Below are positions 39,212 through 63,181 of a stretch of 64,000 nucleotides of DNA, in pieces. Every line of letters starts with the position of its first letter. Position 1 is the stretch's first letter. Below the pieces are notes generated by a model. That model had not been told where the DNA came from and did not search any database. It saw only the letters and a program-made list of their open reading frames with translations. The position numbers and the translations under genes were made by a program. The stretch is from Octopus vulgaris (taxonomy: Eukaryota), in assembly GCA_951406725.2 (NCBI GenBank), contig OX597829.1:54498001-54562000 (forward strand), in the 5' to 3' direction.

Positions 39212-39258
<47 letters not shown>

Positions 39259-41922
39259 AAAAGGATTTTTTAGTTTATTTTTTTCCGGTAATTTTCTCAT
39301 ACAAAACAAGACTTGAATATTTATTACAGCGGCATATTTTTGATTTCAAGTTTTATTTTGTTGAGAACTGAAGAAAAAAAAGAAAGAAAAAAATAAACAA
39401 CCCAGAAGTGAAATATACAGATGAATAAAAAAAAAAAAAAGAAAGAAAAGATAAAATGAAAATCAGATAAGAGATTTCAAGTTGATTTTGCTGCTTATTT
39501 GGAGGGAGAGATTTGTGTAATATCTGTGAGATTTCTAGGCAACAGCCAAAATGATAAAAGGGAAATTAAACTTTCTTTTGGAAAAAGGGAAACAGAAAGG
39601 CTCTGTTATAATAAAAAGGAACAGAGAAAGATAGATTAAATGAAGAGGAAGTGTGAATATAGCTTTCCTGCTGTATTAGGCATTAAGCAACCATCTTGGC
39701 TGATAGGTCTTTCTCACTGTCTCCTCAAGCAGTGTTGACTTATTAAGAATACTTAACGTGTATGAAAGTGAAAAGGAAGCATTTAAAGGCTTCGTTAGAT
39801 GGTTTCTGTTTTTTTTTTTTGTTGCTCTCTCTCTCTTTCTCTCTCTCGCTCTCTCTCTCATCAGTAATCTATAAGAGCTAAATAGATTTGGAAACTGATT
39901 ATCTTTTATATAAAGATACAGAGCCCATTTGTTTTTCTCCAATATTTTTTTTTTTTTCTTTTTTATTATTTTTTAAAATTTTCATAAAGGTAGTGAATTG
40001 CTTGATGAATTTAATCTGCACCAGATTTCGGCTGAGAGCTGTACACATCTCACACCATCAACTGGTGTACTGAGTAGATCTGGTTCCCATTTCAGCAGCT
40101 TATATAGAGTTAAACATTAAAAAGGAAGTTAGAGAGGATAATTAACAGAAGTTAATTGATAAATACAAATAAATAATCCAAGGCTCCTAAAAGAGTGTAC
40201 TTTTCTTTCATAACAAGACAGGTAGTTGGTTTGTGTAGAGTAGACTGAACAAAAACACCAACCAAGTGCTGCCAGTAGGTCTTCCTCACATGCAAACATT
40301 CATTTACAGATATACGAAGGGGAGGGGGAATCATTGGTGGTTTTTGGTTTTCTTTTTTCTTTTTTTTTTTTTCGAGATTCAGATTGCATCATGAAGCATT
40401 GACACAAGCTACAGTTAGGAATTTGAAACAATTTAAACAAATAAAAAATAATTGAAGAGAGATTTCATTCAAAATTTTATTTTCAAACAGCCTATAAAGT
40501 ATATCTTAATAGTTCAGGATTTTTTTACGTTTTTAATTTTTAACCACAATTTTATTAAATTAAGAGGTATGGAAGCTGCTAGGAAATCCACCATACACTA
40601 ATTTAAAGAGTTTACTTTTAATAATAATAATAATAATAATAATCTCTTATTTCATCATCAAAGTAAGAGAATACTATTTTAAGATTGTGTTGTACATCAT
40701 GAACAAGTATTTTGAGCCATACTTGTGTAAATATCTAGTTACACTGAAGAATAATTGCAACTGCCAAAAACAGGTAAGGACAAAAATAAAAGGTGGGGTG
40801 AGGGGAATTAACGGGGTAGGGGAGAAGGGGGGGGAAAATTGACTTTACAGAAACTATTTACATGAAGGGAAAATTAATTTAGAAAGGAAATTAATGGCAA
40901 TAGCAGCACTATAAAACAATATTTATGTGGAAATAAATAATGTTAGTGTCCAGGTTTATGACAGCACATTCATCATTGATTTAAATACATGAGCCAATAG
41001 ATGTCTAAGTTATTTCTTAAGCTATCAGAAAAGAATTGGCTAAAATAATTTCAGTTATATGACTAATATGGAAAAATAACCCCATTTCAACCACATACAC
41101 CAGCAGTGTTTACAAATTGCTGTGATAGATCATATACTAACCAAATGAAATATTCAATATATATTTTTTAATGGTGATATTATAACTAACACACCATTTT
41201 TAAGTGGATTTTATTTTATACATAAATTATTTATTTTATTTATTTTGTTTATTTTATTTGTTTTTTTTACAATTTTATTTATACAAATTTTCACAAACTA
41301 TAATTAAATACATTGAAAGCCAGCTTAGTGGCTTCTCTTCACTATGTTGTGAGTGGGCATAGCATGGTTGTGTCAGAGAAATGTAAGGTATTAGGAGAGG
41401 ATAGGTATCTGGAGAGCAAGGAGAAGGAATGCAGGCATACATGCAGATAATGCACAGAAGTGTGAGAGAAAACAAAATGATGAGAGAAATAATGGAAAGA
41501 CAACACATGCAGCAACATAGATACACCGTATAGTTCCTAAAACATTCACAGAAGGGGAGGGGCAGGGAGATCTCAGATAACAATTGCAAATTACATTAAC
41601 ATGTCCATAATTATTATATTAGTAATACTTCTGAGAGTATAAACATAAGTATACGTCTCTACAAAATTCATACACATTAACATATACACAATACACACAC
41701 AAGCTAACACCCACACATACACATACACATACACATTGAAGAGCAGAACAAATATATAAAGCCCACAAATGTGTACAGAGTATACACCCACCCTTACTAC
41801 GTCCAGCCTTGACAAAAAAACATTCATCCAACCATCTGACCCACCCTTCCCCCCACTCCCTACAAATCTACACTAAATATGTTGCTTTGGTCAAAAGAGT
41901 CCTGCTGCTGGAGCCAGATGCT
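38235..41922 (-). other. Syb: Probable ~3.7 kb synaptobrevin 3'UTR
   Basis: No recognisable TE, U-rich on the minus strand, ends at tandem AATAAA signals. Confidence 0.6.
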
Positions 41923-41948
41923 TCACTTATTTTCATTCACTTGCCAAA
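41923..41948 (-). CDS. Syb: Synaptobrevin last exon, coding part (V)WQVNENK*
   Basis: Long poly-T tract plus cttaaatttcag|TT TGG CAA GTG AAT GAA AAT AAG TGA, followed by a long TE-free UTR-like stretch. Confidence 0.82.
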
Positions 41949-42121
41949 CTGAAATTTAAGAAAAAAAAAAAAAAAAAAAAAAAAGAGAACATCAATATAT
42001 GTGCACACATACATACATACACATATATATATATACATACACAAAATCAAAACATGCTATGTTAAAGCGTATTTTTAAAACTAGTTTCATGAATCAAATA
42101 TATACACACACACACACACAC

Positions 42122-43000
42122 GTGGGGTATAGATGGTATTTGTGGACAATTATCAGTACATTACTCTCTTCAAACCAATTAAAAGGATTTCCCTATGGCA
42201 GACAAAATACAAGAAACGAAAGTCATTATTGCCATGTGTGTGTGGGAAAACAACAATTTAGAAAATTGACAACATTTTATATGTTGCAAGATCTTTCAGA
42301 TGGAATTGGAAGCCTCTCGTGAGAATGTTTAGGGGTTTTACCTCCCACTCTTTGATACACTTCATTCTCAAAGAACTATCAGGAAACAGCAACTCATCCA
42401 GCCTTATTGACATGGATCCCAGAAAAATCAATAAGGGCCATCACCATAGAACTTCTGGTATCAGAATTATTGTGCATAAAGACATTCAATACAAGTCGTT
42501 TGTATTGAGGAGGGACCAATTCCGCAAAGACACAGAACTCCATTTGATCCCTGCCAAGCAGTTGCTTAACAAGGTTTAAAACCCCTCACAAACATGGCCT
42601 GCTTTGGTTCTCTGATGGGAAAAACTCTTCAACCAAGACCCGAAATCTAACAAGAGAAATGAGAGATGGCTATGTACAGATGCTTCTGATGGCTTTAGGA
42701 ATGGTGAGTAAAGAAGGTCATATCATGCCAATTCTCATCTTTCCACAGGATCTTAGAATTTTTATGATAATCCAACACCAAACTTGGACTACTACGTTTG
42801 GAGTGTTTTTTGAAGGGAGACTAATCAACATCATCACAATACCATAGCTCCCCTGAAGGCTGTCATTATCCAGGTGTGAAGTAAAAGCTATTTAGTGTAG
42901 GTTTGTCAACTATTCTGGTTCTGCATTGAAACAATCGTTGCAGCTGAAGGTGGACTCACAGAATAATCTTAGAAGAAAGATTATCGAGAACTTGTCCACG
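42122..43000 (+). mobile_element. Degenerate Tc1/mariner (maT-like) element in the last synaptobrevin intron
   Basis: Remnants IIVHKDIQYKSFVLRRDQF, WFSDGK, MALGMVSKEGHIMP and IVAAEGG. Confidence 0.6.
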
Positions 43001-44552
43001 AAATTTTATTAAATACATTTGGTTTTTGCTAAATTAGAATTGTTTACCAAAATTACTAAGTATGTCCTCAAATACATGCACAGGATGTGAGAAGTATGTG
43101 TATACATACACCTAACCGAGTATATATACATACACACACGAAAACACATTTGCACACATATGACAAAGAAATTGTGTATGAGACTGCAAGCAGACAAGAA
43201 AACATTCTACTATGTAAAATTGAATTTCTTTTCACTGTTACTTTTATCAAAATGCTACATAGCTAACTAAATATAAAATATAGATTGGTCCAACCATAAT
43301 TATGTATATTACAACATTTCAATGAAATCTATTAATTATTAAATTTATAAAGCATGACCTTCAATCAAATACATATGAAAACATTAAAATTCTTTTTAAT
43401 TATTTTACATAGTAGCATTTACATGTTAGTAGAGTTAGAAAGAAGAAAAAATAACATCTTTAACAGCAATAATTGAACAGTGATGGAGCAATTATAACTT
43501 CATAACTTTGAAAGAAATGGATATTAAAGTTTAACAGTACAGGAAATTTAACCTTCTGTAATAACATTAAAAATATTAAGGTAAATAAAAATGTACACTA
43601 TCAAAATAAAGCGTAAATATTCAGACATTAATAAACACCAAGGCACATTCTAATATGAGTAGTGCATGGCAGCACGGATACAGCACCATACAGTTGAAAT
43701 TCTGTTGTAGACGATTTTGCTTTTCACCTCCACTGAATCAACAAGACCAGTATCAAGAGCATACTGAAAGTTCCTCAACTATTTCCTTTCATTATAAACC
43801 AACAAGTTTGTTTCAATGTGTAATGTAGCTTACTTTACAAAATTAATGTTTTGGATTACTTGGAGATTTACATATTCTGAAGCCACCATCAAACTATTTC
43901 AAACCTATGCTTCAAAACCATTTAAACACCAAGTACTGAAGCAACAAATTACTAATATATTAGTAATAAAAGATCTCAATACTGTATCACATAAAAAAAT
44001 TAAAAAATCAAGCTTAATTTAAAACTTTTCTTGAAATATTTTAACAATATTTTGCATAATCTTTCACTGCAAAACAATTCCTTACTACTTAGGGTCTGTA
44101 TAATTCTTTTGTATATAGTGAACACTCTTTTATATGTTCAGTTACACTCTCTGATCACTTTGCATTCAGTTAGTGCACCTTCCACCATTCCATGCATCAT
44201 GCTCAATTTACTCCTGCTGTTATGTAATATCACATTCTGCACTCCTGTTTATCACTGTTACAAAAAGTAAAGTATCCCCTCAATATATGGATTCCATAGA
44301 ACTTACTAGGATTCTCATATAAACAATCTTAGAATACTGAATTAAATGAAGGCTGTGTGATTGTTAGGTAACTAGTCTCCAGAAGTAAGAGAAATAAATA
44401 TTTGGAAATATGCACAAGTGCACAGAAACCACAAGTTCTTTTTGGACTGTTTTATATGTAAGTTCTGAAGAAATAACTATACATTTTAAACTATATCAAT
44501 TATACAAAAATGTTTAAAATGAACCTGTTCTATCACATAACCCATTAGGATT

Positions 44553-44593
<41 letters not shown>

Positions 44594-44816
44594 AATAAAA
44601 CATATCAGGAAAGAAACACACTCTAAAGAATAGAGCAATAATTGTTACAACAAAATTTTAATTCTGGTCATAGAGTTACCAAAGGTTTCGTATTTGTCAA
44701 GGTCAAAGCCTTGTGGACAGCTTCTCAGACTATACAAAGATGAATTTAAACTTTCTACCACGCAAACATAAGGAAACACTAAGATATCAAGATTTAAGGC
44801 CCAATGTATAAACATG

Positions 44817-44872
44817 TTAATGAGGATGGGTTGTCTTCTCTGGACCATATGATAAAATAACCGAAAACAGAC
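44817..44872 (-). CDS. Weak candidate synaptobrevin tail exon (G)LFSVILSYGPEKTTHPH*
   Basis: Acceptor gctgattagtccttttcag|; the phase-1 frame is hydrophobic then polar; lacks the VW signature. Confidence 0.22.
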
Positions 44873-45022
44873 CTGAAAAGGACTAATCAGCAAACAGGGA
44901 GATCCGATTTTCCAGTAGATAGCGCTTGAAGTGGACACGTTTAGGTTTTTTTTTGTCTTTGTATTTTTTTTTTTTGTATTGAATCTGACGAGCTGTCCAC
45001 ATGGCTTTGGCAACTATGACCA

Positions 45023-45062
<40 letters not shown>

Positions 45063-47503
45063 ATATTTAACATCGAAATGTTAACAAAGACAGGAAATAG
45101 AATAAAAACAATTTGTTTTGCACAAGAAAAAAATTGTTGATGCAGAGTAAATATTGGAATGAATATTTCCATGTACTCAATTGCTGATTGCTAAATTTTA
45201 ATTAATGTGGCTAGACACTATTCAAAATCAAAAAGGAAATAATTCACCAAGTGACCAAGGATGCAGGGAACACCAGCATTGCTAGAAATTAGAGTCAGAG
45301 ACTCTAGCCACAAAAGCACATGTTCTATGTACTGACAAGGGAGACAACCTCCATACTGCGAGGGTATTAGATTGGCAAGCCAATTTGGCATGAAAACTTC
45401 ATGCTCATCAGTAGCACTCCGTTGTGGGTGATGAAGCTGAAATTTCAGTTGTAAGTATTTATAGCATTTGCCATAGGAATCAGTGGCTGATTCAGCAAAA
45501 TGGTAATGTGAAAATTATGAAATAACTAAGGAGGCTAGGCACAATTTAAAACCAAAAAGGAAATAATTCACCATCACTAAAATGTGAGCAAGGATGCAGG
45601 GAGCGCCAGCATTGCTAGAAATATATGAAAAGGCATGATTCTCAAGCTTGTATGAGAAGCTGCTACATAAAAGCCATATCAGAACAGCTGATACAAAAAC
45701 TCATTCACTCGACTACTGTAGCACATCATGAATAATGGGGGGGGGGGGGGATCTCAATATTATCTGGAAAGCATTAAATGTACATAACTAAATGTTTCTC
45801 CAACAAAAGATGGAAAATTTTGACTTTACAAAAAAGGCTTACTGTGTCCTACTTTTGTAGCCCTACTGAAACTGTTCTATTACATGCAAGTAGTTAGCTG
45901 GAAAACTTAGATGCAACACACAAACCCTTCTTCTTAGCCCATACCATGTCTCCATCTAGCTGACGATGAGCAGTGCCAAGGAGAATGGTGAGATGCGAGT
46001 GTGATGAAATGTACATACAGACCAAAGAGTGTGGATGAGAGAATGGATTTTCAAAGAAACTGCTACATGGTAACTCCTCACACTGCTATATCAGTAGCCA
46101 GATCTTTATCCAGTTTTTAAATAGCAGTATATCAACACTGACTGTACATCGCTCAGTATATTAAATATACAAGATAAAGACTGCTTCAATACTGGACCAG
46201 AAACACTGACATGCTTGCACTAAATAGCTCTGATTTCTTCAACTAAATCATATAAATATTTTGCATGAGGAAGCATGTTTAAATTGTTGCATTTGTCAGT
46301 GCTTCAACTATTTACAAGTTATTTTGGCATGGTTTTTGCTGACAGACCTTACTTTGTTTGAAATAAAGAGTTATTTAAATAAAATTTTTAAAAACTCTAT
46401 AAAAAATTCACTACTACTTTTCCACTGTTATTCTGACTTAATTTCAAAATTTTGAATTATCGGATTCCAGAAGTTGTCAAACACCAAGCTGATTTACAAA
46501 ATTCAACATTATAACTTTGTCTACATTAACAGTAGCTGATGTAACAATTGTTATAATCTACATCTTATTTTTTTAATGTATTCCATGAAACACCATACAT
46601 GATTAATCAACGTTACATACCATCTTTCATTTGAAAATCAATATTCTTAGGAAATATCACTTTCTCCCATAATGTCCTTATTAATGTAATGTACCCTTAC
46701 AATTTCCAAATAATCTAAAGAGAGAACTCTTACATAAGAATTCTTTATTTACTTACTATGTATATAAGATATTTAACTCACTGAATTATAGAATAAAAAT
46801 TGTCAATTCATAACCCTTCAAATTTTAGAAAACAAATACCTCACATGCACATATCAGAGTTTTAAAAACAATATTAGAAAAAAAAAAGCCCATCTCAGTC
46901 ATTATTTCACCTACAATCTCTAACTTTTACATGTCTGAAATAACTATTAAATACTTGCTCTAGTTACTTCAATTGTAAACACACTCCACTTTTAATTTAC
47001 AAAATGCTTTTATTCTCTACACACCATACTAGTTTTAATAACAATTCTTCAGTTCTAAAGCATTAAATCAAATTATAATTAATGAAGTATATTTGCATTT
47101 TGATGCAATTATAAGTGATTTATAAAAAAATAAAGCAACACTGTTAAGGAACAATATGAAGTAATATTTGAACCACATAATTTTGAAAAACTGCATCATC
47201 ATCATCCCAAATAAAAAAATTAATACTTGCACTGCTTTACCATTAAATTAGATTCTTAATGGAAATAGTAAATTGTATTTTGTTGGCTAAAGGTTTTATC
47301 TGAAGTAACACTATGGGTAATGATTTGAACAATCCTTAAAACTCAGTAACAAGATGAACTTTCATACACAATTCAAAAACTAAGACTGACAAAAAAAAAA
47401 AAAACTAAAAAAACCCACATACACACAAGTATAAAATAATAAAATTGGACCATTAAAATAATTACAAAAATCACAACATCAAAAGAATGAAAATAATCTA
47501 CCA

Positions 47504-47529
47504 TTAGCCATATTTGTTGGCTACCCAGA
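47504..47529 (-). CDS. Syb: Synaptobrevin tail exon (V)WVANKYG*
   Basis: Branch-point-like CTAAC plus ttttcatttctcttctctaatttgccatgcag|TC TGG GTA GCC AAC AAA TAT GGC TAA. Possible donor ATG|GTAGAT at 47502/47501. Confidence 0.75.
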
Positions 47530-48199
47530 CTGCATGGCAAATTAGAGAAGAGAAATGAAAATAACGTTAGTATAAGATCCGTCAAAGGATAAGATTAGTG
47601 AAAAGAAATTGGAGTAAATTTAGTTCTATTACTGTTATTTATAATTATGATTAGGAAAATTCAATTAAACAAGCATTTAATTTTGTAGTCATATAGTAAA
47701 TGTCTTTAAATATTAAGCTAGTGATTTTTGAATAAGTATTTGAGTAAAATGAGAATTATGCAAATTGATAATTACAAAACTGTAAAATGTTCAATTTTGA
47801 AGAAAATATATTAAACTATTATTAACTTTACAAGACCATAATCTAATAGTTTCCATTTGTAATGCAAAGCTATAAAACTTTGTGATGCGTTCAAACAATG
47901 CTACATTTAAAATTAACAAATAACTTTACACAACATCTAAAAGAAAACACACACAAACATACATAAATAGTATTCAAGAAGATAGGTGAACTTAGTGCAC
48001 ATTACACAACAAATTAAAATGCATGCACCATATTAAAAATCGGAAAAGGCTATTTTAAAAGGAATTATATATTATAATCTGATATTCTATAGTTGCCTAA
48101 AATTTAAATTTACAAGTTTTTCACCTATTGTAAACTGTAGCTTTTAAATTCTATTGTTAGTGTTCGGCTTTGACAAGAAATATTTAAAATACACATCAT

Positions 48200-48419
48200 T
48201 TAACCCTTTCATTACCAACCCGGCTGAAACCGGCTCTGGCTCTGTAGTACAAATGTCTTGCTTTTCACAAGTTTTGAATTAAAATCTTCCAAACCTTAGT
48301 CACAATTTATACTACTAACAATAGCTTAATGATAAAGTTATTTTACTAAATTCTTTGTTATATTTAAAATAATTGAAAGAAACACAGAGCATCTCAAAAT
48401 ACAGTAACGAAAGGGTTAA
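48200..48419 (+). mobile_element. piggyBac-type MITE
   Basis: TTAA-CCCTTTCATTAC ... GTAACGAAAGGG-TTAA terminal inverted repeats with TTAA target duplication. Confidence 0.85.
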
Positions 48420-49129
48420 GTCGTTACTCATAAATTGAACATAAAAGAATCAATGAATACACATTTTACAAATTAATGTTATGTATATACTTAGAATTCT
48501 TTTAAATTTTTGAATGTTCAGTTTGTATAGTAAAACTGGTGTAATGAATTCATAAAAGTAATTACAAAGTAATTATGGATATAGATTTATACAAAAACCC
48601 CAAATATATCCTGTACCAGCCCATCTTTATAACTATTCTGAAATTATTTCTTGCTGCAATACAAACTATTTTGGCCTCACCTCAGATATACACCAACTGT
48701 TAACTATAACCGAACGTAGCTACTTTTGTTTCAACAGGCACAAAAGCAGACTGCAAGACAACTAATGAGCCTTAAAAGATATTAGTGGTCTTATAGATGA
48801 TGTCTGAGAGCAAAATTCTCAGTACATATTCCTCTAGCATCTTTAAACCCTACAAATATTCACTCCGGAAGAAACAATATTTTAAAGATTTTTCAAACAT
48901 GGTTTCAACATCAAATAAACTGAAATGATTTACATCATCAGTTTCTTAAAGTTCTTTCACTTCAAGATGATTTGTATGAGAAATAAAGATAAGGTAGAAA
49001 ATACAATTAACATTAATATGTTCTATAACAAGCTCAAACAAAACAGATATGAGGCTTTAATTAAAACCACATTAGAGAGAGAAACCTAATTCAGGGCCCC
49101 TCATTCGAGTGAATCTGTTAGCAATATGA

Positions 49130-49358
49130 TTAATCCTTTAGTGTTCGCATTATTCTGCCAAAATTAATCCTTTTTTATCCACATTGCCTTGAACTAATCA
49201 GGCATTATCTTGGTGCTATGAGATTTTGATGAGGTAGCTGTTAATTTTTAAAACGACATTGTAGGGCTGGTGTGAGAGACCAGATCTGGCCAGTTTGAAC
49301 ATAAAACAGGCAGAATACTTTTGGTCGGATATGACTGGTGTAAATGCTAAAGGGTTAA
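49130..49358 (+). mobile_element. piggyBac-type MITE, second family
   Basis: TTAA-TCCTTTAG ... CTAAAGGG-TTAA; body shared with copies at 6281, 16569 and 50732 and partial copies near 10090 and 49775. Confidence 0.8.
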
Positions 49359-50731
49359 GTGTGCTACATGGGAAGATATACTGTATAAATAAAAAAACTT
49401 ACTAGAAACTACCTGTTCAAAACCCAAGACTTCTTGTAAGAATAGAGACAGTACTGTGCATGTACACAAACACACGTGTATGTATGTGCGTGTGTGTATG
49501 TGTGTGCGTGCATGCATGCGTGTGTATGCATAAGGGAATTAATAGACAAAGTGTTTTTACTCTAAGCATGAGTCTAGATTCTACAATAAGTCATTAAATG
49601 AGTTCACATATTATTTTATGTTTCTCCAACAACTTTGCTTGAATCGTTTAGAAAAACTTAATCTCAGATCTGATGAATTGCTGTATCAAGGACAGGTCAA
49701 TATTGCAAGTATCTAAAACACTACAATAAATATGAGAGAAAATGAAGGGTTTTAGCCAAATGAATGAAGTCTCAACATTCAGACATTTCAGTCAAATGCA
49801 ATACTTATTCATTTATATTGTTTTCAATTAATCACACAATGATCTGATTATTTTAAGAATGACATTGTAGGTGAAGAGTAAGAGGCCATAAAACAAGTAG
49901 AATATTCGGGAGGGATATAGCTAGTCTGTGGAGGTGCATGGTTTAGTGGCTAGTGTTGGATTCATGATTGTGAAATTGTGGTTTTAATTCCTGGATTGGG
50001 CAACGCATTGTGTTCTTGAGCAAAACACTTCATTTCAGGTTGCTTCAGTCCCCTCAGCTGCCAAAAACAAGTGATACCGTGACAGACTGGCATCCAGTCT
50101 GAGGAATTATATTCAGAGAAACTGGCTTTATGCTCCTTGTGGAGTAATGAGGACTAACCAACCTAGAGCTAGTTTAAATTCAAGAAGTTTAAACAAAAAT
50201 TATTTTTTCTTACGATGAATAAACTAATATTATATTTAATTATTGCTCAATATTAATCAGAAAGACAAAGTTTTCAAAATGTATATTTCACAGCAATGAT
50301 ACAATTCAAGGAAAAGATTATTGGCATCTAAAATAATTAGAACTCTGACAAGTCATTTCAAGGAAACTTGTGCAAAACTGAGATAAAGAGATGAGGAACA
50401 TCATTCTTTATGTTTAAAAGGGGTAAAATCCAATACTTTAAAGAATTGGAGTCTAAGTAATTGGTAGTTTGTGTTTGATTCCTATAAGGGCTGATTTAAC
50501 CCGTGGCTAAGAACTAATAAGATGAATATTTGATCAACTGCACCAATATGTTCCACCAAGTGCTATACATTAGACTAGTTATTGCTTTTGTTTCACTTCC
50601 AGGACAAAAGAATATTCTATCCCTAGAAACAATATTTTGGGAAAAAACAAAACCAAAGAAACCATTAAAATTTAAAATGGTAAACTTTCACATGGTCATT
50701 CAACCTGGCAAAATTATAGCCAGCCATAATC

Positions 50732-50954
50732 TTAACTCTTTAGTATTCAGGTTACTCTCTCAAATGTAATGCATATTATTTCCATATAGTTTTCAATTAA
50801 TCATGCATTATCTTGTAGACGAGATTTTCATGGTGCGACTGCTTATTTTTAGAATGGCATTGTAGGTGTGAGAGGCCAGATCAGGTTAGTTTTAACATAA
50901 AAATGGTAAAACATTTATGCTGGATATGGTTCAGTTTGAATGTTAAAGAGTTAA
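50732..50954 (+). mobile_element. piggyBac-type MITE, second family
   Basis: TTAA-CTCTTTA ... TAAAGAG-TTAA. Confidence 0.75.
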
Positions 50955-51653
50955 ATCACACTTTACTGCTTCAAATGATTTAAGCTAAGAACTGTCATTC
51001 AATTAGATCATTAAATACTATTAATTTAATCACACTAAAATAGACAAAATAAGCATACTAATACTTAAGGTCTCCTACCCTAAAAAAGAGGCAACGTGTT
51101 TTGATAAACGACTTTTTACGTTGAATATATTAGAATATCCAAAAATAATATATCTTTTAAAAATCAGTCAATGAAAATCAATACCAGAATTCTAAATTCA
51201 AATAGATAATCACTAAATAGTACTAAAATCTAACATCTACAATCACTAAGTAGAACCAAAAATCTAACATCTACAAAAAGGGTTATGAGAAATTTCGCCG
51301 TAAATATTTTTGCTGTTGAAAAATTAGTCATAAGAAATTTCGTTATGACTTCATCACAGTTTTTTAATGTTTGACATTAAAGATTTGCCTATTTAATGCT
51401 TTTACAAAGCAATGATTTATTTATTTATTTATTTAACAAAATGCTGATATAATTGTCCATACAGTGAATTTGTCTTAGGGCGAATTTTCTCAACATGTAC
51501 AAGAAGCTAACTTTTAAAAGATAACAGTATTCCTACATTTTACTCCCTACAACCATTAAAAATAAAATTAAAAAATGCATATACAGTCAAAATCTCTTAG
51601 CAAAAATGAACTTCATAAGCCACAAAATAAAAATATCTAAAAAATGATACAGA

Positions 51654-51692
<39 letters not shown>

Positions 51693-51945
51693 TTGTGTGC
51701 ATGCACACACAATTTTGAAATATTTTTATGTTTTTAAGTGCAACAATTAGGAAAATTCCTGTGCTAAAAAAAAAACATCCTAACACCAGAAAACCAATAC
51801 ACACAGTATAACTACACTTGAATCTCGGACAAAACATCTACCTCTATATACAACACGTACAACATCTAATGAATACCAAGATTGTGTTGGATAGTGCAAA
51901 TATATTCATAAGACAAGAAATTTTAGCTTACACATCGCAAAGTAT

Positions 51946-51962
51946 TTATGCGAACACCCAGA
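51946..51962 (-). CDS. Syb: Synaptobrevin tail exon (V)WVFA*
   Basis: ttcctatttctttgtcttcctacctatcacag|TC TGG GTG TTC GCA TAA. Phase 1 gives the Val-Trp ending seen in mollusc VAMP TMDs. Possible donor TGT|GTAAGC at 51932/51931. Confidence 0.72.
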
Positions 51963-54251
51963 CTGTGATAGGTAGGAAGACAAAGAAATAGGAACAGATT
52001 AGATGTTGTATATAAATTTATGTACATATATAATCTATAACATTTATATAACTGTCTTGCATAACTGCAATTCATAAAACAATCATCTCATTGTATTGTA
52101 TGCAATATTAAGAATGTGTAAAGGTTACACTTAGTGAATTTCAAGCAGTAATAAAGAAAAACATGCAAATTGAACGAGTTAAATCAAATAAGAATGGATA
52201 AAGGGAAAAACAAGCTCACTAGAAAACATTTCTTTTTATATTTATATATATGAATGTGAAAATATGTGTGGTTAAAGAATAAATAATGTTAAAAGTTACT
52301 AACAATGAAGAGACTCAAAGAGAATATATCTCATTTGAATGAAATTTTAATTTGTCAATACAATGAGTTAACAAAACATTTTAAAGTTTGCACAGACACT
52401 CAAAATATATTAAATATGAATAAATTAGAATACCAATTAATACAAACCAAGATGTAATGTAGATATTTAAATTTATATACTAAAAAAAAAATTCAACTTG
52501 AAAAGATTGAAGAGTTTATCGCTACACATTAGAAAAGATGAATAGTTAAAAACACATACAAATTAACATTTTAATCTTAAAATATAAAAATGTAGTTTAT
52601 ATAAATATCAAATTAGAACTTTATTAAATTGAAATTTAAAATAATTAGTATTGTCAAACTTGAAATGAATCTAAGTATTTAGTTTTAAAATGTAAGAAAA
52701 ACTCAATCATTTGAAACATTTTAAAAAGGATGAAACAAAATATATAAATTTGAATAAATACTAAAGAAAAACAGCTAATGCAAGCTATCTTGTAGTGGAA
52801 TGCTTTCACTGAATTCTACAGTAATGTTCAATTATAAAACATTTTATGCAATGAAATTGAAGTGAAATATATGAGTATATGAAGTACGTACAAAGAACAG
52901 AAAGCAAAAATGAAAGGGACAAAGTGAGAAAATTTCTTGTCAAAATCTAAATTATTAATGGTTTTTATTTAAAAACCTCATAAAAATCCAGAAAACATTT
53001 TACTTATAACATTCAAATACCAAAATCTTATTCCTATGTATTAAAAAAAGAGAAAAAAAAAACAACATTTAATCCAGTTATTTCACACAGGTACACAATA
53101 TATGTAGCCATAAAAATTATGAATTGTGCTGAAATTATTTTTCAAATAAAGGAAAGAATTCAATTCATTAGATGAATAATAAAATTTAAATAATATACAG
53201 AAAACACAAATGTGTAATATATATTTACAATCTACCCCTCTTCAGACATTAACTAAGACCATGATGAAAACAATTTAATCCAAGATCATAGAAACTTAAG
53301 ATTTTAATACAGAAAGATTTTGTGAAGTTGGGATTAATTATCAAAATGAGGAAAAAAAAAACCACATTGTATTGCTAATCAAAATACAAATGGGAATCTT
53401 ATTTGAAAAGCGTAAGAAATTATGGAAATTCTTTTCCATATTATAATATAATAGTTAAATCTATTATTCAAACAGCATTACTATAAACTAAGTTAAAAAT
53501 TAGCATTAAAAATTAATCTTCATACTTTTTATTTTAAGAAACTAACAAAATGGAATCATTGCTACATTCATAACTGTCTCTTTTTGAAGAGTTTTTTGTG
53601 GCTGTTGACCAATTAACCTTAGTACACTTGTCCAAAAATGCCAGTCACTATTCATAGCATAGTAATAATGTTAATGATAATTCAGTCTATAAAATACGTT
53701 CTGGAAATTTATAAATCAGCAAGCAGAGTGATTTCACAAAATAATGCTACTAATTTAACTATGGGTGGTTGTCCAAATGAACTACATACTATATAAATAC
53801 ACAATTGCTCAAGACCAGTTATAGGCCTTTCGTTGTTTCTCCATGGTAATAAAATAATAATAAAAATAAAACAAAATATAAAATTTATCTTCTGTTTTGT
53901 TAGACTGATGAAATTCTTGATCATAATAAAAATATCAATGATATTTTTTATCTTTAATTTGACATGGATGAATACTCTTAAAAGCAGTTTTCAGAGCAAT
54001 GGATTGGCTGAATCTGTAAGATATTGGACGAAATAAGTTGGATTATTTGAATATGGGTCTGTACATTGCACTGTTCAAATCCACCAAGATCATCTTTGCT
54101 TGTCATTGTTCCAAAGATTAGCAAAATAAGTGCAACTCAAGAACTGTGGCTGATTTAATCAACTACACAACTCTCCAAAAGGAGACTTTCTACCTATGTT
54201 AAACATAAGTTTATGGTATCAATTTTTTTCATTAAACATTTGAATACTAAA

Positions 54252-54846
54252 TCTAATATAATAAATGTGAAAACTAATTTCTGTGTGTCAGTGTGTCACA
54301 CTTTGATCCCTTCTCTCGCTATTCAATGTAACTTCTACTGTTGATGGGATTAATAAGAGAAAGAGTAGGTATGTGAGAGAGTTAGGGACTAAACACTGAA
54401 TTCATTTTCTTAGTACCACCACATCTGCCATACACCCACCAGACTTCTGACACCACCACCATCAATAACTGACTTCACCACCATGACCAGTCTTTCACAT
54501 CTTTCACTCTCACTGTCATCCCTGACCATCTCAGCTAGCACCACCACCACCACCACCACAACTACACCTCATACTATTACTATCCCCCCATTACCATCAC
54601 AAAAAGGCTGAAAGGTGTGTGTATGGCAGAGGTGGTGGCCATGGTGGTACTGTTGTTTATCATGCAGCTTTGCAATAAGTTCCAAGTTGACAAATTATAT
54701 CACTGTTTTGATGAAAATTGCTCAAGTTGAATAAAATTTAATATGTACTCAATGCATGAAGCGTCATTGTTGGGCCCAAGTCCCAATGAAGAGCCCTCCA
54801 CAGGAGCCAGCTTAAGAGCCACCCAATAGAGCGGCTTTTAAGCTAG
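54252..54846 (+). mobile_element. Probable non-autonomous Helitron, different family
   Basis: A|TCTAATATAATAAA start, GAGCC...GGCTT subterminal stem, CTAG|T end. Confidence 0.55.
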
Positions 54847-57757
54847 TATCTTCTATATTCAAATATAATCTAGAGAAAAAAGTCATCATCAGGCAACTTG
54901 ACAAAGAAGAACATTTGGGAAATAGCCTTGCCTAAAGGGTATTGACTAGAATTCAATATTTCTCAGTATGAACAAGCAACTAGTTTTAGTCTGGACTGTG
55001 GCCATTACTGGTATAGAACCTTCAAAAATTTTAGTTTAAATCAATACTAATACTTTGCCTTGTACTTATTTTAATGACCTTGGAAAGAGAAATGTAATGT
55101 CATCCTGGAACAGGATTTAAAAATCAGGACAAAGGGGAGTAACTAACTCTCCTCAAGTTATTCTGACTTGCTCTTTGCTAATTCTGCCCACTATAAACTA
55201 CTTAATAAACATATGTAAATAGAAAAAAACATGAAAATATATTAATATTTTATTTACAAACATATTCACACATTTGAATAAATACACACAGGCTCACACA
55301 TACTGAGCATCCAAAAAGACAAACTGCTGCTCACTACTTTTGTACATCTTTTCATTCACAGCTGCAGTTTCAGCTACTTAGTTATATATAATTGTTGGGA
55401 AAAGTTGACAGTTGTCACCTGCTGGCAAAGAATAAACTGCATGAAATGTTTTAAGTTGTGCAATGTTTATGGTAATAAGGCATAAAGCAATGGATGTGAA
55501 AAGATTAATGGAGGGCAGGGAAGGATGAGCTAACAGAGAACATCCAATGAAACACTTTACTTGCATAAAAAAAAAAACTGAGCATACACAGGAGAACTAT
55601 GAAAGCAGACAGACAAGGATTGTTGGCTGTGCTGGTATAGATATATATAATGTGTACAGATGAAATTCTGACATAAATTGACCAAGTGAGAGACAGGGAT
55701 CGATGAAGTCAAATCTAAAGGTTATGTAAGATTTCAAATAGCAGGATTCAGTATTGCAAACAAGTATGATGAAAAGAAAATGTTAAAAACCATCACATTG
55801 TTTCGAACATAACTTAGATGATGCTTATACAGAGTTATGAAGAGTTTGAAATAAACGACCATTTTAAGATGGGCAATTTTGTTGCAATAGAATCAGAGAT
55901 GACCTCAAGCAAGTTGATATCAAAAATGAATGGTTTAACAACCCCAAGATGTTTGAATGTGGAATGAAAATAAGTCATTTTATTTAAAAGACAAATTTGA
56001 AAAAAATCTAAGAAAACAGCATAAATATAACAAAAATTCTAAAATATACCAGAGAATTAAAGACTAATAAATGTAAATAAATAGATTGACTATAAGCTAT
56101 GAAATGGAGGAAACATGGATTTTATGAAATGGCTAGTTGAGTAAATGAAATGATTTATGAGGAACAAAGAGTTGGTTCAGAACATCAGTTATAATTAATA
56201 AGCATTTAGTCCTTACAAATGTTAAAAAACACAGCTTGCCAACACAAAATGTAAAAGTATCAAAATTTGATATAAGTCAGGTAAACAATTTCACTAATAT
56301 TTACTATGGTTACAGATACAATTGTTCACAACAACTGATAAGATTAATGCAGATTAATGCAACAACTTTAAAGTCAGAAAAACAAAGTTAATTATTAAAA
56401 TAAAGACGAGCTAAAAATATAGATCAGACGATATTTACATCCATAAATGTAATAATGTTCACATTATTAGGATTATTCTTTAAAATATATATAATTGGGA
56501 TAATTTGAAAGCCAATTTATGAAACAAGTTTCTGGTTAATTTGCTTCTTAGATTGCTTTTAGACAACATTTTAAAAACATTTCAAAATGAAATGGTTCAC
56601 AGCACCTTCAGCTTATTTTGGCCAAGTGGAGATAAGCAGCTAACATCTCTATAATTGATTTCAGATATGTAACCTCTCTGAGCAAATTTCTTTAGTTGTG
56701 AAAAGAAACCTTTTAATTCCTATTTACTATACCTACCAAGAATTCCCTTAACATTTCTTCCAGGTTACTGCAGTGTAATACACAAGGTGCTTATTTTGTT
56801 TTTATCTTTATATACTTTTGTTCATTCTAACTTGTTTTTACCAATTAAAGATGGCAATTACTTAAAAAAATTTTTTTTTTTAATCACTCGCAGATCCAAG
56901 ATGGTACACTCAAGTAATTTTTAGTATTAGAAACATAAACACGACTGACAATTTATCATGGAATAAGTCACTGAGATATACAACAGGGATCAATGTATGT
57001 GGCAGAAGAGTTTTCAATAAACATGTATATAATGTGCTTCCTCACTAAATGATACAACTCTGAAACCAATCACAGAATATCAAGTTCTTTGTAGAATAGG
57101 TGTATGTCATGGAGAAGTTTATCAACACAGAATTAACAATAATCCTTAACAAGCAACTGGAATCCATAAACTTCCTTTCTCTTAGAAACTATCTTTGATG
57201 CAAATTTTAGCTGTGAAAATGTTATCTAGCAACATTTTGTATAAACAAACTGTATTAGCAGTCAAACTCCTACCATTTTAATAATCTGCACAAAATTATA
57301 AAGAAAGTATATGGTTGTTCTAATAGTGACTCATCTGTTTTCTATCCAGACTCTCAGACTAAAATTATATCTGGGTTTCTATGACACAGGAAGCTGAAAC
57401 TAGGAACCTATTACATTGGTTTTCCAAACTTCTTTCATGTATTGGCATGAGTAGTGTTTTGTTTAGGGAAAAATCATTTAGCCCTATCATCAGCCAATTT
57501 GTCTGAGAAATCTGAGTTATACTCTCGTAGTGAATGTGATCCAACTATTTTTAGTTTGGTTCTAGCTTCACTCAATCGGATTGGGACCCAATATTTCTGG
57601 CATCAAAATATCTTTATCAGCCTTTGTTATTCAGGTCGGTTAAGTACTAAATTAAGTAATTAAGACTTAACTACGTTTGGTGTCAAAATACTGGCAACCA
57701 AACAAGGTATCATACAAAAGACATGGAACCAACCATGCAATAATCTTAGATTGACTT

Positions 57758-57786
57758 TCAATGAGCAAGTAAGCCAAATATGAATG
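57758..57786 (-). CDS. Syb: Candidate synaptobrevin tail exon (A)FIFGLLAH*
   Basis: Long pyrimidine tract ending ctttgtatttag|; read in phase 1 it gives a short hydrophobic tail. Confidence 0.4.
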
Positions 57787-58137
57787 CTAAATACAAAGTT
57801 AAATTGAGAGAGAGAGAGAGAGAGTTGCAAAAGATGGAAAAACAGAAATGAAGATAGTAACATAATATACAGGATTATCATAGAAAGTTGATTAAATTTA
57901 ACATTACTTCCAATTTAGTGTTTTTGAGAGTTGGGATTGAAAACCTGATCCATCTTTAATTAAACAATTAGTATATTATATAAAGCATTTAAAAAGTGAG
58001 TTAATAGACGCATTACAAATTGAGGTATTTCATACACTGGAATTGAGAGAATATTAGAGCAGCACAAAAGAACTGACATCTTCTTTGCAATACAGTGTTA
58101 GAATAGATGGCAGTTCGTAAGACCAACAATAACTTAC

Positions 58138-58189
58138 CAATGATAATGATAATAATCACAAGTACAATGGTAACAAGAATAGCGATCAT
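58138..58189 (-). CDS. Syb: Synaptobrevin alternative transmembrane exon B (MIAILVTIVLVIIIIII + G)
   Basis: ctcttttacag| acceptor and TTG|GTAAGT donor. Same length (52 nt), same phases and same ending (ATC ATT G) as exon A; no charged residues. Confidence 0.9.
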
Positions 58190-58964
58190 CTGTAAAAGAG
58201 AATTTCAAAAAAGCCAAAAGTGCAAATAAATAAAAAAATTATAAGTAAAAAGAGATAACATTGTTTAACCTCTAAAAAGATTGACTTCAACATTATGAAA
58301 AAGTTAAAATTAACTGATGCTCAAAAGCAGCTTAAATGCTTTCTGATTTTTTTTTTTAATTATCTTTTTAAATTTCATCTCAAATTGAGTAGATGAGCCA
58401 TTCTCATGAAATCTTATGATTAGCAATCTAATATAAGAGGTTAAAATTTCGACATAAAAAAAAAAAAAAATTTGGCGTGCAAGTGCAAGATAAAAAATAA
58501 TGACATTCCAGAATATATTTCAAAGAAGAAGGAAAAAGAAAAAAAAAAAAAAAAAGAAAATGAAAGAATGAAAGAAAGATAGCAAATTTGCTTTGCGTGC
58601 TATGGGGAAAAAATCCAAATGCAAATTGTCAAAGTATATAAAATTTGAAATAAAATTTCTAAATTGGCATTCAGTGCTGGAGAAAAGAAAAACACTTTCA
58701 AGATGTTGGTTCAGTAACAATCAGCTTTCATCTGGTTGAAAGATTATTTTTTTTTTTTATTTCATTTTTTACCACTCAACATATTTTCACACAGTAACCC
58801 ATACTTTCTGCTCATTTTATAAAAGATAAAATTTAAAACAAGCAGAAAATTACTGCATATCATACTGAGTGGGTAAAAAAAAAAAAAAAAGTGTAATTTC
58901 CAGGAAGCTGTTGTAAACAAACTCAACAAGAAAGTGATTGATAATCGATGGCACCAGCACTTAC

Positions 58965-59016
58965 CAATGATTACAGTGACAATGGCTGCCACAATCGCAC
59001 CAAGAATTATCATCAT
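58965..59016 (-). CDS. Syb: Synaptobrevin transmembrane exon A (MMIILGAIVAAIVTVII + G)
   Basis: tttcag| acceptor and TTG|GTAAGT donor; 52 nt, phase 0 to 1; typical MMIILG VAMP TMD start. Confidence 0.95.
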
Positions 59017-60679
59017 CTGAAATTATCCAGTAATAAGGCTTCATGATTTATCATACCATGTTCATAAAATAATTCTACCAGGCTGTATACATTCTAAAAT
59101 TTAAACTCCTTAATTATTTAATCGAAAGAAAACAAAGAGAAGAAAGGAAATGGTCATCACATTTCATTTTTATATAAGATATGTGTTATGGATCAAGTAT
59201 CCATAATTGAAGATCTTAACTGTTATCCTGCCAAATTACATACAAAGGCAAATTGAAGATAAGCTTCTTATGTCACAACTCATGGAGACAAAAAAATGAA
59301 GCAGGCACATCTAATTCGAATTTATGTACAATTAAAAACAGAGTTTATTTAAAGCCGCAATCGTAGCCTAATGTAATCTTATGGAAAGTCATGACTGTGG
59401 CTTTTAGCAGGGTAACAGTTAATATTTTAGAATTACAGAGAGTATGAGTCAACATATTTAATTATCTGAACACTATATTTTTTAAAGCTGTTAAAAGACT
59501 ATTCTTACATGTATAAAATAGTGCCAAGAACATTCTACAATGTAAATGAATACATTTTAAAAAAGAAATTTAAATGCTTTAAAAATTTTTTAAATAATGT
59601 TTTGTACATATTTTTTAATCCAGAATAAGATTCCAAAATTAGTTCACAAATTACGAGGATATAAGAAAATTACTTTTACAGCTTTAAAGTCACTTTAACT
59701 TAGTAAAATAATATACAGATATAAATTAACTATATATTTCATCGTTTAACTGCCACTCTCCAAGCAAAGATGCATTGGAAGATTCAATAGGATCCAAAAA
59801 ATCATAGGACCAAGACATGCTCTAATGTCTTTTATTGTGGTTTCCAAGGCTGGATACCCTAACAACCACTTGACAGAGCATACTAGTTGCATTTTCATGC
59901 TACCAAGAAGACTAAAAAAGAACTTAAAGTGGCCCCTAAAACTGAAGGAGACTTTAACAGCATAATAATTTTTAGCAAGGTAATGAAAGACAGTAAAGAA
60001 TGATAAGAGGAACAGTTTTTTAGCAGTGTGGTGGTAGTGGAGGAGCAGGTAGTGGAGGGAAGGAAACGGGGGGGGGGAGGAAGGTCAGGGTCAATGGTTA
60101 GCAAGAAAGGAAAGGATAGAACTGTAAAGGTGATGAGACAGGTTGTGTAGAGGGGGTATTCTGCATTATAAGAGTGAGTATGAATGGTAGGCCTGAGGGG
60201 AAGGGAAGATGAGTGGCAAGAATCCAAGAAGAGATAATAAGAGAGGAGCAAGAGTTGTTGTGGGGGGGGGGGGGGGCTGGTGTGGGAGAGATGGTGTAAA
60301 AGCTGTGGGGAGGGAGAGAGAGAGAGAGTATACAACCACACATTTGAAATGGGTTTAAAATATTCAAAGAGATTAACATTTGACCACTTGATAGTATAGA
60401 ACTTAACAGCAATTAAAAGTTAGACTTTTAAAAACATTTGTTTCATTATATATGAATTCATTAGAAAAATAAATTCCTCAGATTCAATACAATATAGGTC
60501 AAATATTTCCTAGTAATACTTTACTTTTACTTATAAATAAAAATTGTTTTAAGAATACGTCTTTTAGATCAATTAATTTCAATAAGTTTAGGTCTTAGAG
60601 TATATAATTTTATCAAAATTTAATAAAAACAACTACCAAGAGAGAAAGAGTGTGATTTTAACCATAAAACCAAACCTAC

Positions 60680-60759
60680 CTTGCAGTTTTTCCACCAGAA
60701 TTTACGTTTGAGTTTTCCAGCACTTGCTTCAAACTGTGAGGCACCTGCTTGAAGTGCAT
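60680..60759 (-). CDS. Syb: Synaptobrevin exon [27 protein letters not shown]
   Basis: tttttag| acceptor and AAG|GTAGGT donor, 80 nt; canonical juxtamembrane WWKN motif. Confidence 0.98.
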
Positions 60760-62751
60760 CTAAAAAGAAATTTTTTTTTTTTATGTTAAAAGATAGCCTA
60801 AAGTGCTATAAGACAAAATATTACAAACCATTTAAAACAAAATTAGGAAGTTTACTTCATGTCTAGGGATATTTTACAAGTCAAGAAAAAACTATGCAAC
60901 AAGATGGTGTAATAGTTTTTAAGAAAAGATGCTTTTACATTCGTCAGCTGTATTTGTTACAATTTCCAAACAAATGAAATGGAAAAAATGTAATAGCCAA
61001 GAGAGAGCCTGTCAAATAACTTCATTAAAAAGAATCATCAACCCAAGTTTATTCAAGTATTCTTTTCTGTCAGTTTCTGCACAACAACAGTTTACCAGTA
61101 TGTCACACCCAAAACATTGAAATTACAGCTTTTTTAATGACCTATTTAATAACGTTCTCTCAATTCCTCATTTTAATTTGTACTATAGGAAAATGTTGAT
61201 AGCTTTCACAGATCAACTGAGATTGGCAGGATTGTAATTATATGCTTAGTACAAACAATTGCAAAAGAAACAGGAGGAAATTCTTGAGGATTGATATTCA
61301 GGAGAGAAATAGGCAAGTTAAAAGTTCAGGTTGGGTGATGAAAAGCAGTATGAGTGATAATAAATTGATTCATTGGGTTAAGCAAGATTCAGAAAGGATA
61401 TAGAACGTGTATCAATCGGAAACATAAATAGGGAAGTTCCACCCACACGTAAGAAAACTTTTCATATACCCTACACCAACAAACCAAACTACATCTCTTC
61501 TCTTCCTTACATTTCCTCCTTCATACCCTATGCCTATCTCTCATTCCCCAATCCTGTCCGCATGGTACTGTTTCTCTGTAGCAAGCCCCCTCCTACTCTA
61601 TATACCCAGGTTTTCACCTCACACTTCCTCTCCCCCCTCTAATCACACTTCTTTGGCGATATCCTGCCACTTATATTAAGACCTTCAAACCTCAAAGGTA
61701 TGCCCTGGCACTTGCCACCATCCATATCTCTCTCTTCCTTTACTTGACCATCCCATTTATATTCTGATCCATGTCCATTGGGAGTATGCCCAGCACTTTC
61801 CCCACTCTGTCTCCTTCATTTTCATCAGGTTAGATAACCATGTATCTCCTTTGTGGCAGCACACCTGTTTCTGTCTTCATTCCTGATCTCTCCCTCTCTC
61901 CGGCTGGGCAACCTTGTACCTCCTCTACAGCAAAACACATTTCTGACTCACTATAAGCTTTCATCATCACCTCTTTCAATGCCCCCTCCCCTCCTAAAAG
62001 ATCTTTGTCTTGCAGGTTACATGGTGACCCTATCAGTGCAGGTGCTACTTAAAATGCATCCAGCTGTAAAACCCTTGTCAAAGCTGACCTGACTTGTGCT
62101 TGTGCCATGTAAAAAGCACTAAGTCCACTCTGCTGAGTGGTTGGTGTTAGGAAAGGCATCCAGCTGTAAAAATGCTGCCAAAACATTCACAGAAGTCTGG
62201 TACAGGATGCTGCTTGGCCGGCTCCTGTCAAACTGTCCTACCCTTGCCAGCATGGAAGGCAGATGTTAAACGATGATGAAAATATAATTTTGTAGAAAGT
62301 TCAGAGCAACAGAGTGAAAAGAAGACAAGAGCTAAGAGATGTGAACACTGAAGTCACCAGGACAGAAGTACATTGAACGAAAGTAACTGGAAATTTTTGA
62401 TGCTGCTATCCAGATGAGAGAGAGAGTGACTGCGCCATCTTTCAGAGTAAAGTTGAATTAGTGACAGTAAAGATTAGCTAGAGACATCAGGTGAGAAATT
62501 TGTCTTGAGTGCGAGTTACTTACATGTTAATATCAGATGAACAGGTAGATACACTATTACTGACAGAATACATTGATTAAATTACACTATTTTTTAACAA
62601 TACACCAAACAGAATTCTCAAGCCTGACAAAAACATTTTCAGTTTCATTTTATTAGATTCCAAATTAGCCAGTCGTTTAGATGAGGATTTAGATAAATTC
62701 AAAATTTATATTTGCATGTCATGTAAGAAATGAAGTTTTAATAAAACTAAC

Positions 62752-62830
62752 CTGCTCTGTCATCCAGTTCAGAGATTTTAGAATCTCTTTCCAAAACTTT
62801 ATCAACATTCACGCGCATAATATCTACAAC
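62752..62830 (-). CDS. Syb: Synaptobrevin exon [26 protein letters not shown] (R-SNARE zero-layer Arg)
   Basis: ttttctacag| acceptor and CAG|GTTAGT donor, 79 nt; phases match both neighbours. Confidence 0.98.
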
Positions 62831-63075: not shown

Positions 63076-63181
63076 CTCTTCAACTTGAGCCTGTGTTTGT
63101 TGCAACCGTTTACTTTGCTGGACAGGCTGAGGAGGGCCTTGTGGTGGGCCGGGAGGGCCACCAGGCTGTGGTGGGCCTGAC
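63076..63181 (-). CDS. Syb: Synaptobrevin/VAMP exon: Pro/Gly-rich N-terminus and start of the SNARE motif (SGPPQPGGPPGPPQGPPQPVQQSKRLQQTQAQVEE)
   Basis: tttctttag|G acceptor and GAG|GTAATT donor, 106 nt. RLQQTQAQV is the synaptobrevin signature. The exon starts in phase 2, so the start codon lies outside the window. Confidence 0.97.

Follow-up and report, generated by a model that had tools for sequence, protein, structure and literature searches.

How many different membrane anchors can one synaptobrevin gene attach to the same SNARE core, and by which exons is the choice made? This question is raised by a window of 64,000 nucleotides (nt) of the Octopus vulgaris genome (GCA_951406725.2, contig OX597829.1, positions 54,498,001 to 54,562,000; all positions below are those of this window), the minus strand of which carries, from 64000 to 41000, most of the octopod synaptobrevin (VAMP) gene. 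An earlier note, made from the letters alone, had read this region as an array of alternative luminal-tail exons which, combined with two exons for the transmembrane domain (TMD), would give six or more anchors and possibly a sorting or fusion code. Our analysis suggests that the gene holds a two-TMD, stacked-stop-cassette anchor switch, in which a constant SNARE core would be followed by one of two TMD exons (likely mutually exclusive), then by two cassettes carrying stop codons and by one shared last exon, and which would tune vesicle fusion or sorting by cell type. We give this explanation as a whole a probability of about 0.72. The exon architecture itself is very probable, while the tuning of fusion or sorting by the choice of anchor and tail, argued by analogy, is favoured less strongly.

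The architecture was traced in splice junctions of transcript-like contigs. Four of 23 listed runs (X5, X9, X13 and X19, from four studies) were mapped on 41100-60900, all of them as contigs; three are predicted to be RNA and one has no label. A total of 20 listed runs contain 41200-41960, 14 of which are predicted RNA, and none is recorded as RNA. The joint between the last core exon and TMD2 (60680-58189) was present in all four mapped runs, and 41948/41949 was a contig junction or boundary in all four. In X13, the joint 58138-51962 (depth 136, with a 31-nt side) connects TMD2 to a first tail cassette, A, and the joint 51932-47529 (depth 112, with a 28-nt side) connects A to a second, B. In record 1 of X13, 41948 is preceded by 58 nt, the sum of exon B (28 nt) and a 30-nt overlap, and from these 58 nt we infer the joint of B to 41948, which is absent from the joint listing. 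Some minor read-through past 51932 (depth about 18) is possible. Taken together, 51962-51932 and 47529-47502 are internal cassettes, each provided with a GT donor, and they are joined one after the other to the last exon.

Cassette A (51932..51962, minus strand, 31 nt) encodes VWVFA, its stop codon ending at 51946, and has its own donor, GTAAGC, at 51931. Cassette B (47502..47529, minus strand, 28 nt) encodes VWVANKYG, with the stop ending at 47504 and the donor GTAGAT at 47501. The shared last exon (39250..41948, minus strand, far end approximate) opens with tail C, VWQVNENK, whose stop ends at 41923, and continues as 3' untranslated region (UTR). Alternative last exons would each be terminal and have their own 3' UTR; in X13, however, the exons opening at 51962 and 47529 are followed by the one at 41948. 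The proposal of a tail array thus stood in so far as the VAMP C-termini are genuinely alternative, but the layout is not a plain array: stop-cassettes are stacked before a shared last exon and the choice is hierarchical. The earlier note had missed that 51962 and 47529 open internal cassettes with donors of their own. The outcome that it had named as refuting it, use of the 41948 acceptor alone in all tissues with no conservation of the other Val-Trp segments, did not occur, as both of these acceptors are spliced in X13 and two tails are conserved. The first tail exon included would set the stop, so that inclusion of A would give VWVFA, inclusion of B without A would give VWVANKYG, and skipping of both would give VWQVNENK, all three on the same 3' UTR.

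A different path was found in the other runs. In X19, the last-exon contig has a depth of 99.9, the same as the core-TMD2 joint, and the bin depths leave the cassettes at most 43 and 57. Since these caps lie below the depth of the joint, TMD2 is spliced straight to 41948 in this run. In X9 and X5, where the joint reaches depths of 493 and 324, the cassettes are capped at 21-73, which is consistent with the same main path, both cassettes being skipped. The steps seen in octopus are therefore core to TMD2, TMD2 through A and B to the last exon in one run, and TMD2 to the last exon in another, which give two of the six possible anchors, TMD2 with VWVFA and TMD2 with VWQVNENK.

Record 9 of X19 extends 1855 nt past 41100. 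This contig, reaching about 39250, and the AATAAA clusters in the last exon (41279-41215 and 39357-39279) suggest short and long 3' UTRs. The last intron (42100-47200) is covered by contigs in all four runs, with coverage climbing toward the 3' end in X9, and it may be slowly removed or retained. The interval 47700-50900, between A and B, is repeat-dense, and contigs from other parts of the transcriptome raise its depth to very high values; two sets of joints, at 47.7-50.9 kb and 44515-58454, lie within repeats and were set aside.

The earlier note had named five acceptors (51962, 47529, 41948, 57786 and 44872), which all read with their peptides as claimed, and had considered the three Val-Trp starts unlikely by chance. 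Between 58130 and 41000 there are 849 AG sites, 29 of which pass a simple strong-acceptor filter. A Val-Trp start follows 3 of these 29; of 123 control sites, taken from the opposite strand and from elsewhere in the window, 1 has such a start. The chance argument holds at P = 0.0004 by motif frequency, 0.0035 by the all-AG rate and 0.022 by Fisher's test, the motif having been picked after the fact. Stronger evidence comes from the contig joints described above and from a scoring of the 849 AG sites with 162 distinct tails from other animals as reference, in which 47529 ranked first and 41948 second, with scores of 39 and 38; the next-best AG site scored 28.

Two weaker candidates found no support, which leaves the tail count at three. 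The site 57786 (AFIFGLLAH*) ranks 152 of 849 and has no joint among the joints listed; 44872 (GLFSVILSYGPEKTTHPH*) ranks 57 of 849, fails the strong-acceptor filter, is crossed unspliced by X9 and X19 contigs and likewise has no joint among those listed. No convincing extra tail exon was found between the core and TMD2 or beyond 41900. A single RBFOX-type TGCATG site lies 227 nt past cassette A and is uninformative at a regional rate of 0.66 per kb.

The tails were also compared with those of other animals. Counterparts of tail B are VWVATTYG in Mytilus and a chiton, AWVASKYS in venerid clams, AWVASTYG in oyster and VWIATKYA in a priapulid. Tail C has counterparts in Mytilus, VWAVE(D/E)NK, and in P0150, a transcript-derived protein with an identical TMD2 followed by VWTVNDNKKGGN. 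A class of short tails (VWATS, VWATQG, VWASTG, VWATQ) recurs in gastropods, ticks and echinoderms. Among 78 metagenome loci, 54 were examined; 27 were mRNA-like with a full anchor, and 10 of these 27 had tails of at most 8 residues. Two of the ten short-tailed contigs, from unrelated animals, hold a second recognisable tail just past the stop, under a second-tail filter that is loose and also gives doubtful hits further out: L019 has VYFTT* and then VWATTS* 16 nt on (a 33-nt unit), and L044 has VYATQS* and then VYASSG... 7 nt on (a 27-nt unit). Possible second tails past the stop were also noticed in L011 (VWVVT..., 113 nt on) and L013 (VWLS*, 26 nt on).

Upstream of the tails lie the two TMD exons, both on the minus strand and 52 nt long. 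TMD1 (58965..59016) encodes MMIILGAIVAAIVTVII and TMD2 (58138..58189) encodes MIAILVTIVLVIIIIII; both begin in phase 0 and end in phase 1 at GTAAGT donors, and they share 33 of 52 bases. Being in tandem, equal in length, alike in phases and related in sequence, with a frameshift on double inclusion, they have the features of a mutually exclusive pair. The stops reached after double inclusion likewise lie outside the predicted decay range. Since frameshifted double-TMD products have been recorded for Physella, Lineus and P0332, it is probably splicing that imposes exclusivity, in a leaky manner. The acceptor of TMD1 is weak (12 of 22 pyrimidines vs 16), which fits a regulated exon. TMD2 exceeds TMD1 in hydrophobicity (TMD2 sum 63.7) and in Ile/Val content (12/17 vs 9/17). 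A search for docking/selector pairing near these exons gave nothing persuasive, the 25 listed of 98 inverted repeats being mostly A/T runs.

TMD1 would substitute for TMD2 in some cells, probably neurons. In X13, a contig begins 25 nt inside the core exon, as expected of a TMD1 branch (5 shared first bases, a 31-mer graph being assumed), and the overhang of 24 nt in X9 does not fit this expectation; the X13 contig is a hint only. In relatives, each of the 10 pairs tested (from 7 molluscs, 2 hagfish and 1 tick) has two TMD forms joined to one and the same core. Five of the six combinations of TMD and tail class are found among the retrieved Mytilus records, and four of four across two hagfish. 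The combinatorial use of TMDs and tails proposed earlier is thus borne out in relatives, but not to the same extent in octopus, where two of six pairings were observed.

We next consider what the two TMD forms correspond to. A class score was trained on the A and B forms of 7 non-cephalopod molluscs and placed 14 of 14 correctly when each was left out. It puts octopus TMD1 in class A, VAMP1/2-like (+20.7), and octopus TMD2 in class B, VAMP3-like (-11.6). Jawed-vertebrate VAMP1/2 records were class A in 14 of 14 cases (15 were given, one without a TMD), and VAMP3 records were class B in 11 of 11, the VAMP3 set having been obtained by a class-B query, which tempers the agreement. All 10 named jawed-vertebrate hits of that query are VAMP3, and hagfish has both classes. 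The mouse TMDs in Table 1 of PMC4972536 agree with the A/B split. The TMDs of VAMP1/2 and VAMP3 (cellubrevin) therefore resemble octopus TMD1 and TMD2, respectively; they belong to separate genes in jawed vertebrates, whereas octopus, other molluscs and hagfish have them as alternative exons of a single gene.

As both TMD types are isoforms of one gene in 7 other molluscs and hagfish, this pattern suggests that the jawed-vertebrate paralogs split an ancestral exon pair. We see an even chance that a single secretory synaptobrevin gene of the bilaterian ancestor already combined mutually exclusive TMD exons with stacked, decay-evading stop cassettes, a layout that would have been kept in octopus, other molluscs and hagfish and split in jawed vertebrates into VAMP1/2 and VAMP3, each retaining one TMD exon. 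Several observations pull the other way. Octopus TMD2 lacks the usual Trp2 and is less B-like than the others (-11.6 vs -20 to -32), ambiguous scores were obtained for the second tick TMD (-6.3), the priapulid (-9.1) and two echinoderm TMDs (+3), and convergence over 17 residues is a possible source of the likeness.

How would such a switch act on the protein and on its mRNA? The tail exons contribute the last turn of the membrane helix, with apolar runs of 22, 21 and 19 residues for A, B and C and a further 0, 4 and 6 residues beyond them, and the anchors are predicted to differ in apolar length and in polar or charged luminal residues to this extent. As to the mRNA, a stop codon more than 50-55 nt upstream of the last exon junction triggers nonsense-mediated decay. 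The stop of A lies 14 nt before its own donor, and inclusion of B places it 42 nt from the last junction; that of B lies 2 nt before its own donor. With cassettes this short, the distance from these stops to the last junction stays below about 50 nt, and mRNAs stopped in A or B are therefore predicted to escape decay, provided that the rule holds in cephalopods.

Regarding function, it was reported that the beta-branched TMD content of mouse VAMP2 sets the expansion and speed of the fusion pore (PMC4972536), and that charged C-terminal residues of mouse VAMP2 impair release (Ngatchou 2010 as cited in PMC4972536). A lengthened luminal tail of human VAMP1 cuts exocytosis (PMC5288468). A tuning role of the octopus anchors appears likely by analogy, and a sorting or fusion code, as the earlier note had put it, is plausible.

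Some of our observations weigh against the anchor switch as we describe it. The RNA status of the runs is a tool's prediction. Cassettes A and B were detected in one of the four runs, and no direct joint of TMD2 to B is among the joints listed. No joint of TMD1 is among those listed in the four runs either, and the bin depth of TMD1 is 0 in three of them; as contigs drop minor paths of equal length, this zero is no proof of absence and we did not use it as such. In the tail scoring, 51962 ranked 8 of 849, inside the decoy range, and tail A, a weak match, may belong to the short VWATS-like class. The isoforms of relatives are mostly database models.

The strongest rival is that the exon choices are coupled and that no more than two or three isoforms are of consequence, such as a neural and a general form, with no free six-way code. 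It would account for the single dominant path in each of the four runs, always via TMD2, and for X13, where A and B are included together and B is merely UTR. However, X13 joins the VAMP3-like TMD to the short tail, while the other runs join the same TMD to tail C; the pairings in Mytilus and hagfish are nearly all or all of those possible; and the tail B peptide is the best conserved, implying translation. We regard such coupling as possible but somewhat doubtful.

Another explanation is that the cassettes chiefly control the level of the mRNA, as poison exons or UTR elements, and that the peptide differences are incidental. Both A and B do have stop codons upstream of an exon junction. Those stops, however, lie 42, 14 or 2 nt from the last junction, below the limit for decay, the form with A and B dominates X13, and tail peptides are conserved in molluscs and a priapulid. 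We consider it unlikely that this is their main role.

It is equally improbable that one of the tails sends the protein to a different organelle, as in VAMP1B. A mitochondrial anchor of the VAMP1B type has a shortened TMD followed by several basic residues. Tails B and C contain one lysine each, but no octopus anchor has more than one basic residue (Lys or Arg), tail C is neutral overall, and TMD2, as noted above, is strongly hydrophobic. VAMP1B is mitochondrial; it and VAMP1A diverge at the same exon boundary and differ in a few residues at the C-terminus (PMC5288468; PMC2659752), and its listed apolar run of 18 residues (PMC2659752) compares with 19-22 in octopus. The parallel with mitochondrial VAMP1B drawn in the earlier note therefore fits poorly. 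Finally, a reading of the upstream Val-Trp segments as splicing noise or cryptic acceptors, with 41948 as the only site that matters, would agree with cassettes seen in one of four runs and with the weakly conserved tail A, but it is largely refuted and very hard to credit, because 51962 and 47529 are spliced in X13 as the dominant contig path with exact GT-AG ends, two tails are conserved, tail B ranks first of 849 and the same design occurs in L019 and L044.

Among known systems, the C-terminal splice variants of VAMP1 come closest to the anchor switch. C-terminal splicing of VAMP1 yields four isoforms (A-D) that differ in 3-5 residues, of which 1B is mitochondrial (PMC5288468, PMC3123573, PMC2659752). 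Mammalian VAMP1 (SYB1) resembles the octopus gene in having one SNARE core and a phase-1 donor after a 17-residue TMD exon that swaps the last few residues (PMC5288468 and bird and mammal records). Unlike octopus, it has one TMD exon, and its isoform D arises by donor read-through (c.340+2/c.342, PMC5288468); the octopus gene, in contrast, has two TMD exons and spliced stop-cassettes stacked before one last exon, the comparison covering VAMP1 apart from the exon layout of VAMP1B-F. Aplysia synaptobrevin (P35589) has an orthologous core, and the Aplysia records include the two TMD types as well as a short tail and a long one; its last-exon tail is long and Gly/Pro-rich, whereas that of octopus has 8 residues.

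The octopus cassettes share with poison exons an in-frame stop upstream of a junction, but here the stop ends a complete protein at no more than 42 nt from the last junction, short of the more than 50-55 nt that decay requires. Srrm3/4 neural micro-exons are 3-27 nt long and preserve the frame. Very short cassettes in a vesicle-traffic gene are a shared trait, but those of octopus, of 31 and 28 nt, end the protein and do not keep the frame; a UGC motif, a 3-mer common by chance, lies at -10 of the acceptor of B and is absent for A. The octopus system thus acts like VAMP1 tail splicing, yet it fits neither the class of alternative last exons nor those of poison exons and classic micro-exons.

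C-terminal splicing of VAMP1 is already known, and many invertebrate isoforms are in public annotation. The literature searched gave no account of anchor or tail splicing in invertebrate VAMPs, nor of paired TMD exons, stacked stop cassettes or their relation to the VAMP1/2-VAMP3 difference, with subscription papers, including Kloepper 2008, outside our reach and a prior mention possible. Passages of a Tritonia transcriptome paper have nothing on isoforms.

The constant core is encoded on the minus strand by three exons shown in the window. The first (63076..63181, 106 nt) covers the proline-rich N-terminal part and the start of the SNARE motif (SGPPQPGG...QAQVEE) and matches named octopus and squid synaptobrevins. 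The second (62752..62830, 79 nt) carries the central arginine of the SNARE motif, and the third (60680..60759, 80 nt, phase-0 donor) carries the end of the motif and the juxtamembrane linker (...KFWWKNCK). An X9 contig extends from the third exon into the second (loose end at 60761). The third exon is identical in 26 of 26 residues to squid synaptobrevin 1L4A, whose core is orthologous to that of octopus and from which the anchor is missing. The central-arginine R-SNARE motif and the WWKNxK linker are those of a secretory R-SNARE (synaptobrevin/VAMP1-3, PF00957), relatives carry PF00957, and the 17-residue TMD exons with tails of 5-8 residues provide the single C-terminal TMD and short luminal tail of this family.

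When the genome (G000) was searched with the squid core, four matches were obtained, three of them the exons of the synaptobrevin gene and one a VAMP4-like locus. The latter, the sole other core match, is an exon at L008 1501-1602 (G000:C12) with VAMP4 as its best PDB match. Within the limits of this search, the gene in the window looks like the only VAMP1/2/3-type gene in the genome. Inside the window, NVDKV at 46527 and KLKRK at 33715 were rejected as signs of a second VAMP gene, being chance matches.

Two frame-preserving N-terminal cassettes lie on the minus strand upstream of the window: one of 42 nt (SGPQNPQAGPGGPP, L001 1113-1072), used by P0123, and one of 33 nt (EDNGDWTVVVR, L002 about 9827-9795), used by P0001. 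Chiton and abalone records hold pieces resembling them, and as far as the sequences go the N-terminus of synaptobrevin is modular as well. P0123, the single retrieved record named as O. vulgaris, matches the TMD1 frame and then runs through the TMD1 donor into the intron (window 59016-58762) with none of the tails, and P0001 terminates by read-through past the third exon; both look like incomplete gene models. Homologue, cluster and representative searches for full-length cephalopod isoforms returned only P0001, P0002, P0123 and P0150.

The case of P0123, which reads through the TMD1 donor and lacks the tails, indicates that gene models may miss anchor and tail splicing. The counterparts of two tails across molluscs and a priapulid point to selection on those residues, and the stacked cassettes would offer a compact route to swapping C-termini that requires no additional 3' UTR and for which no decay is predicted. 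The role of the v-SNARE anchor and luminal end in fusion has so far been argued mostly from engineered mouse VAMP2 mutants; the natural octopus isoforms, which differ solely in anchor and tail on an identical core, are a ready construct set for it. Our reading also offers an origin for the difference between VAMP1/2 and VAMP3. If it is true, the split between synaptic and general v-SNAREs would have its origin in alternative splicing confined to the membrane anchor, and the anchor, not the SNARE core, would have first specified the vesicle type.

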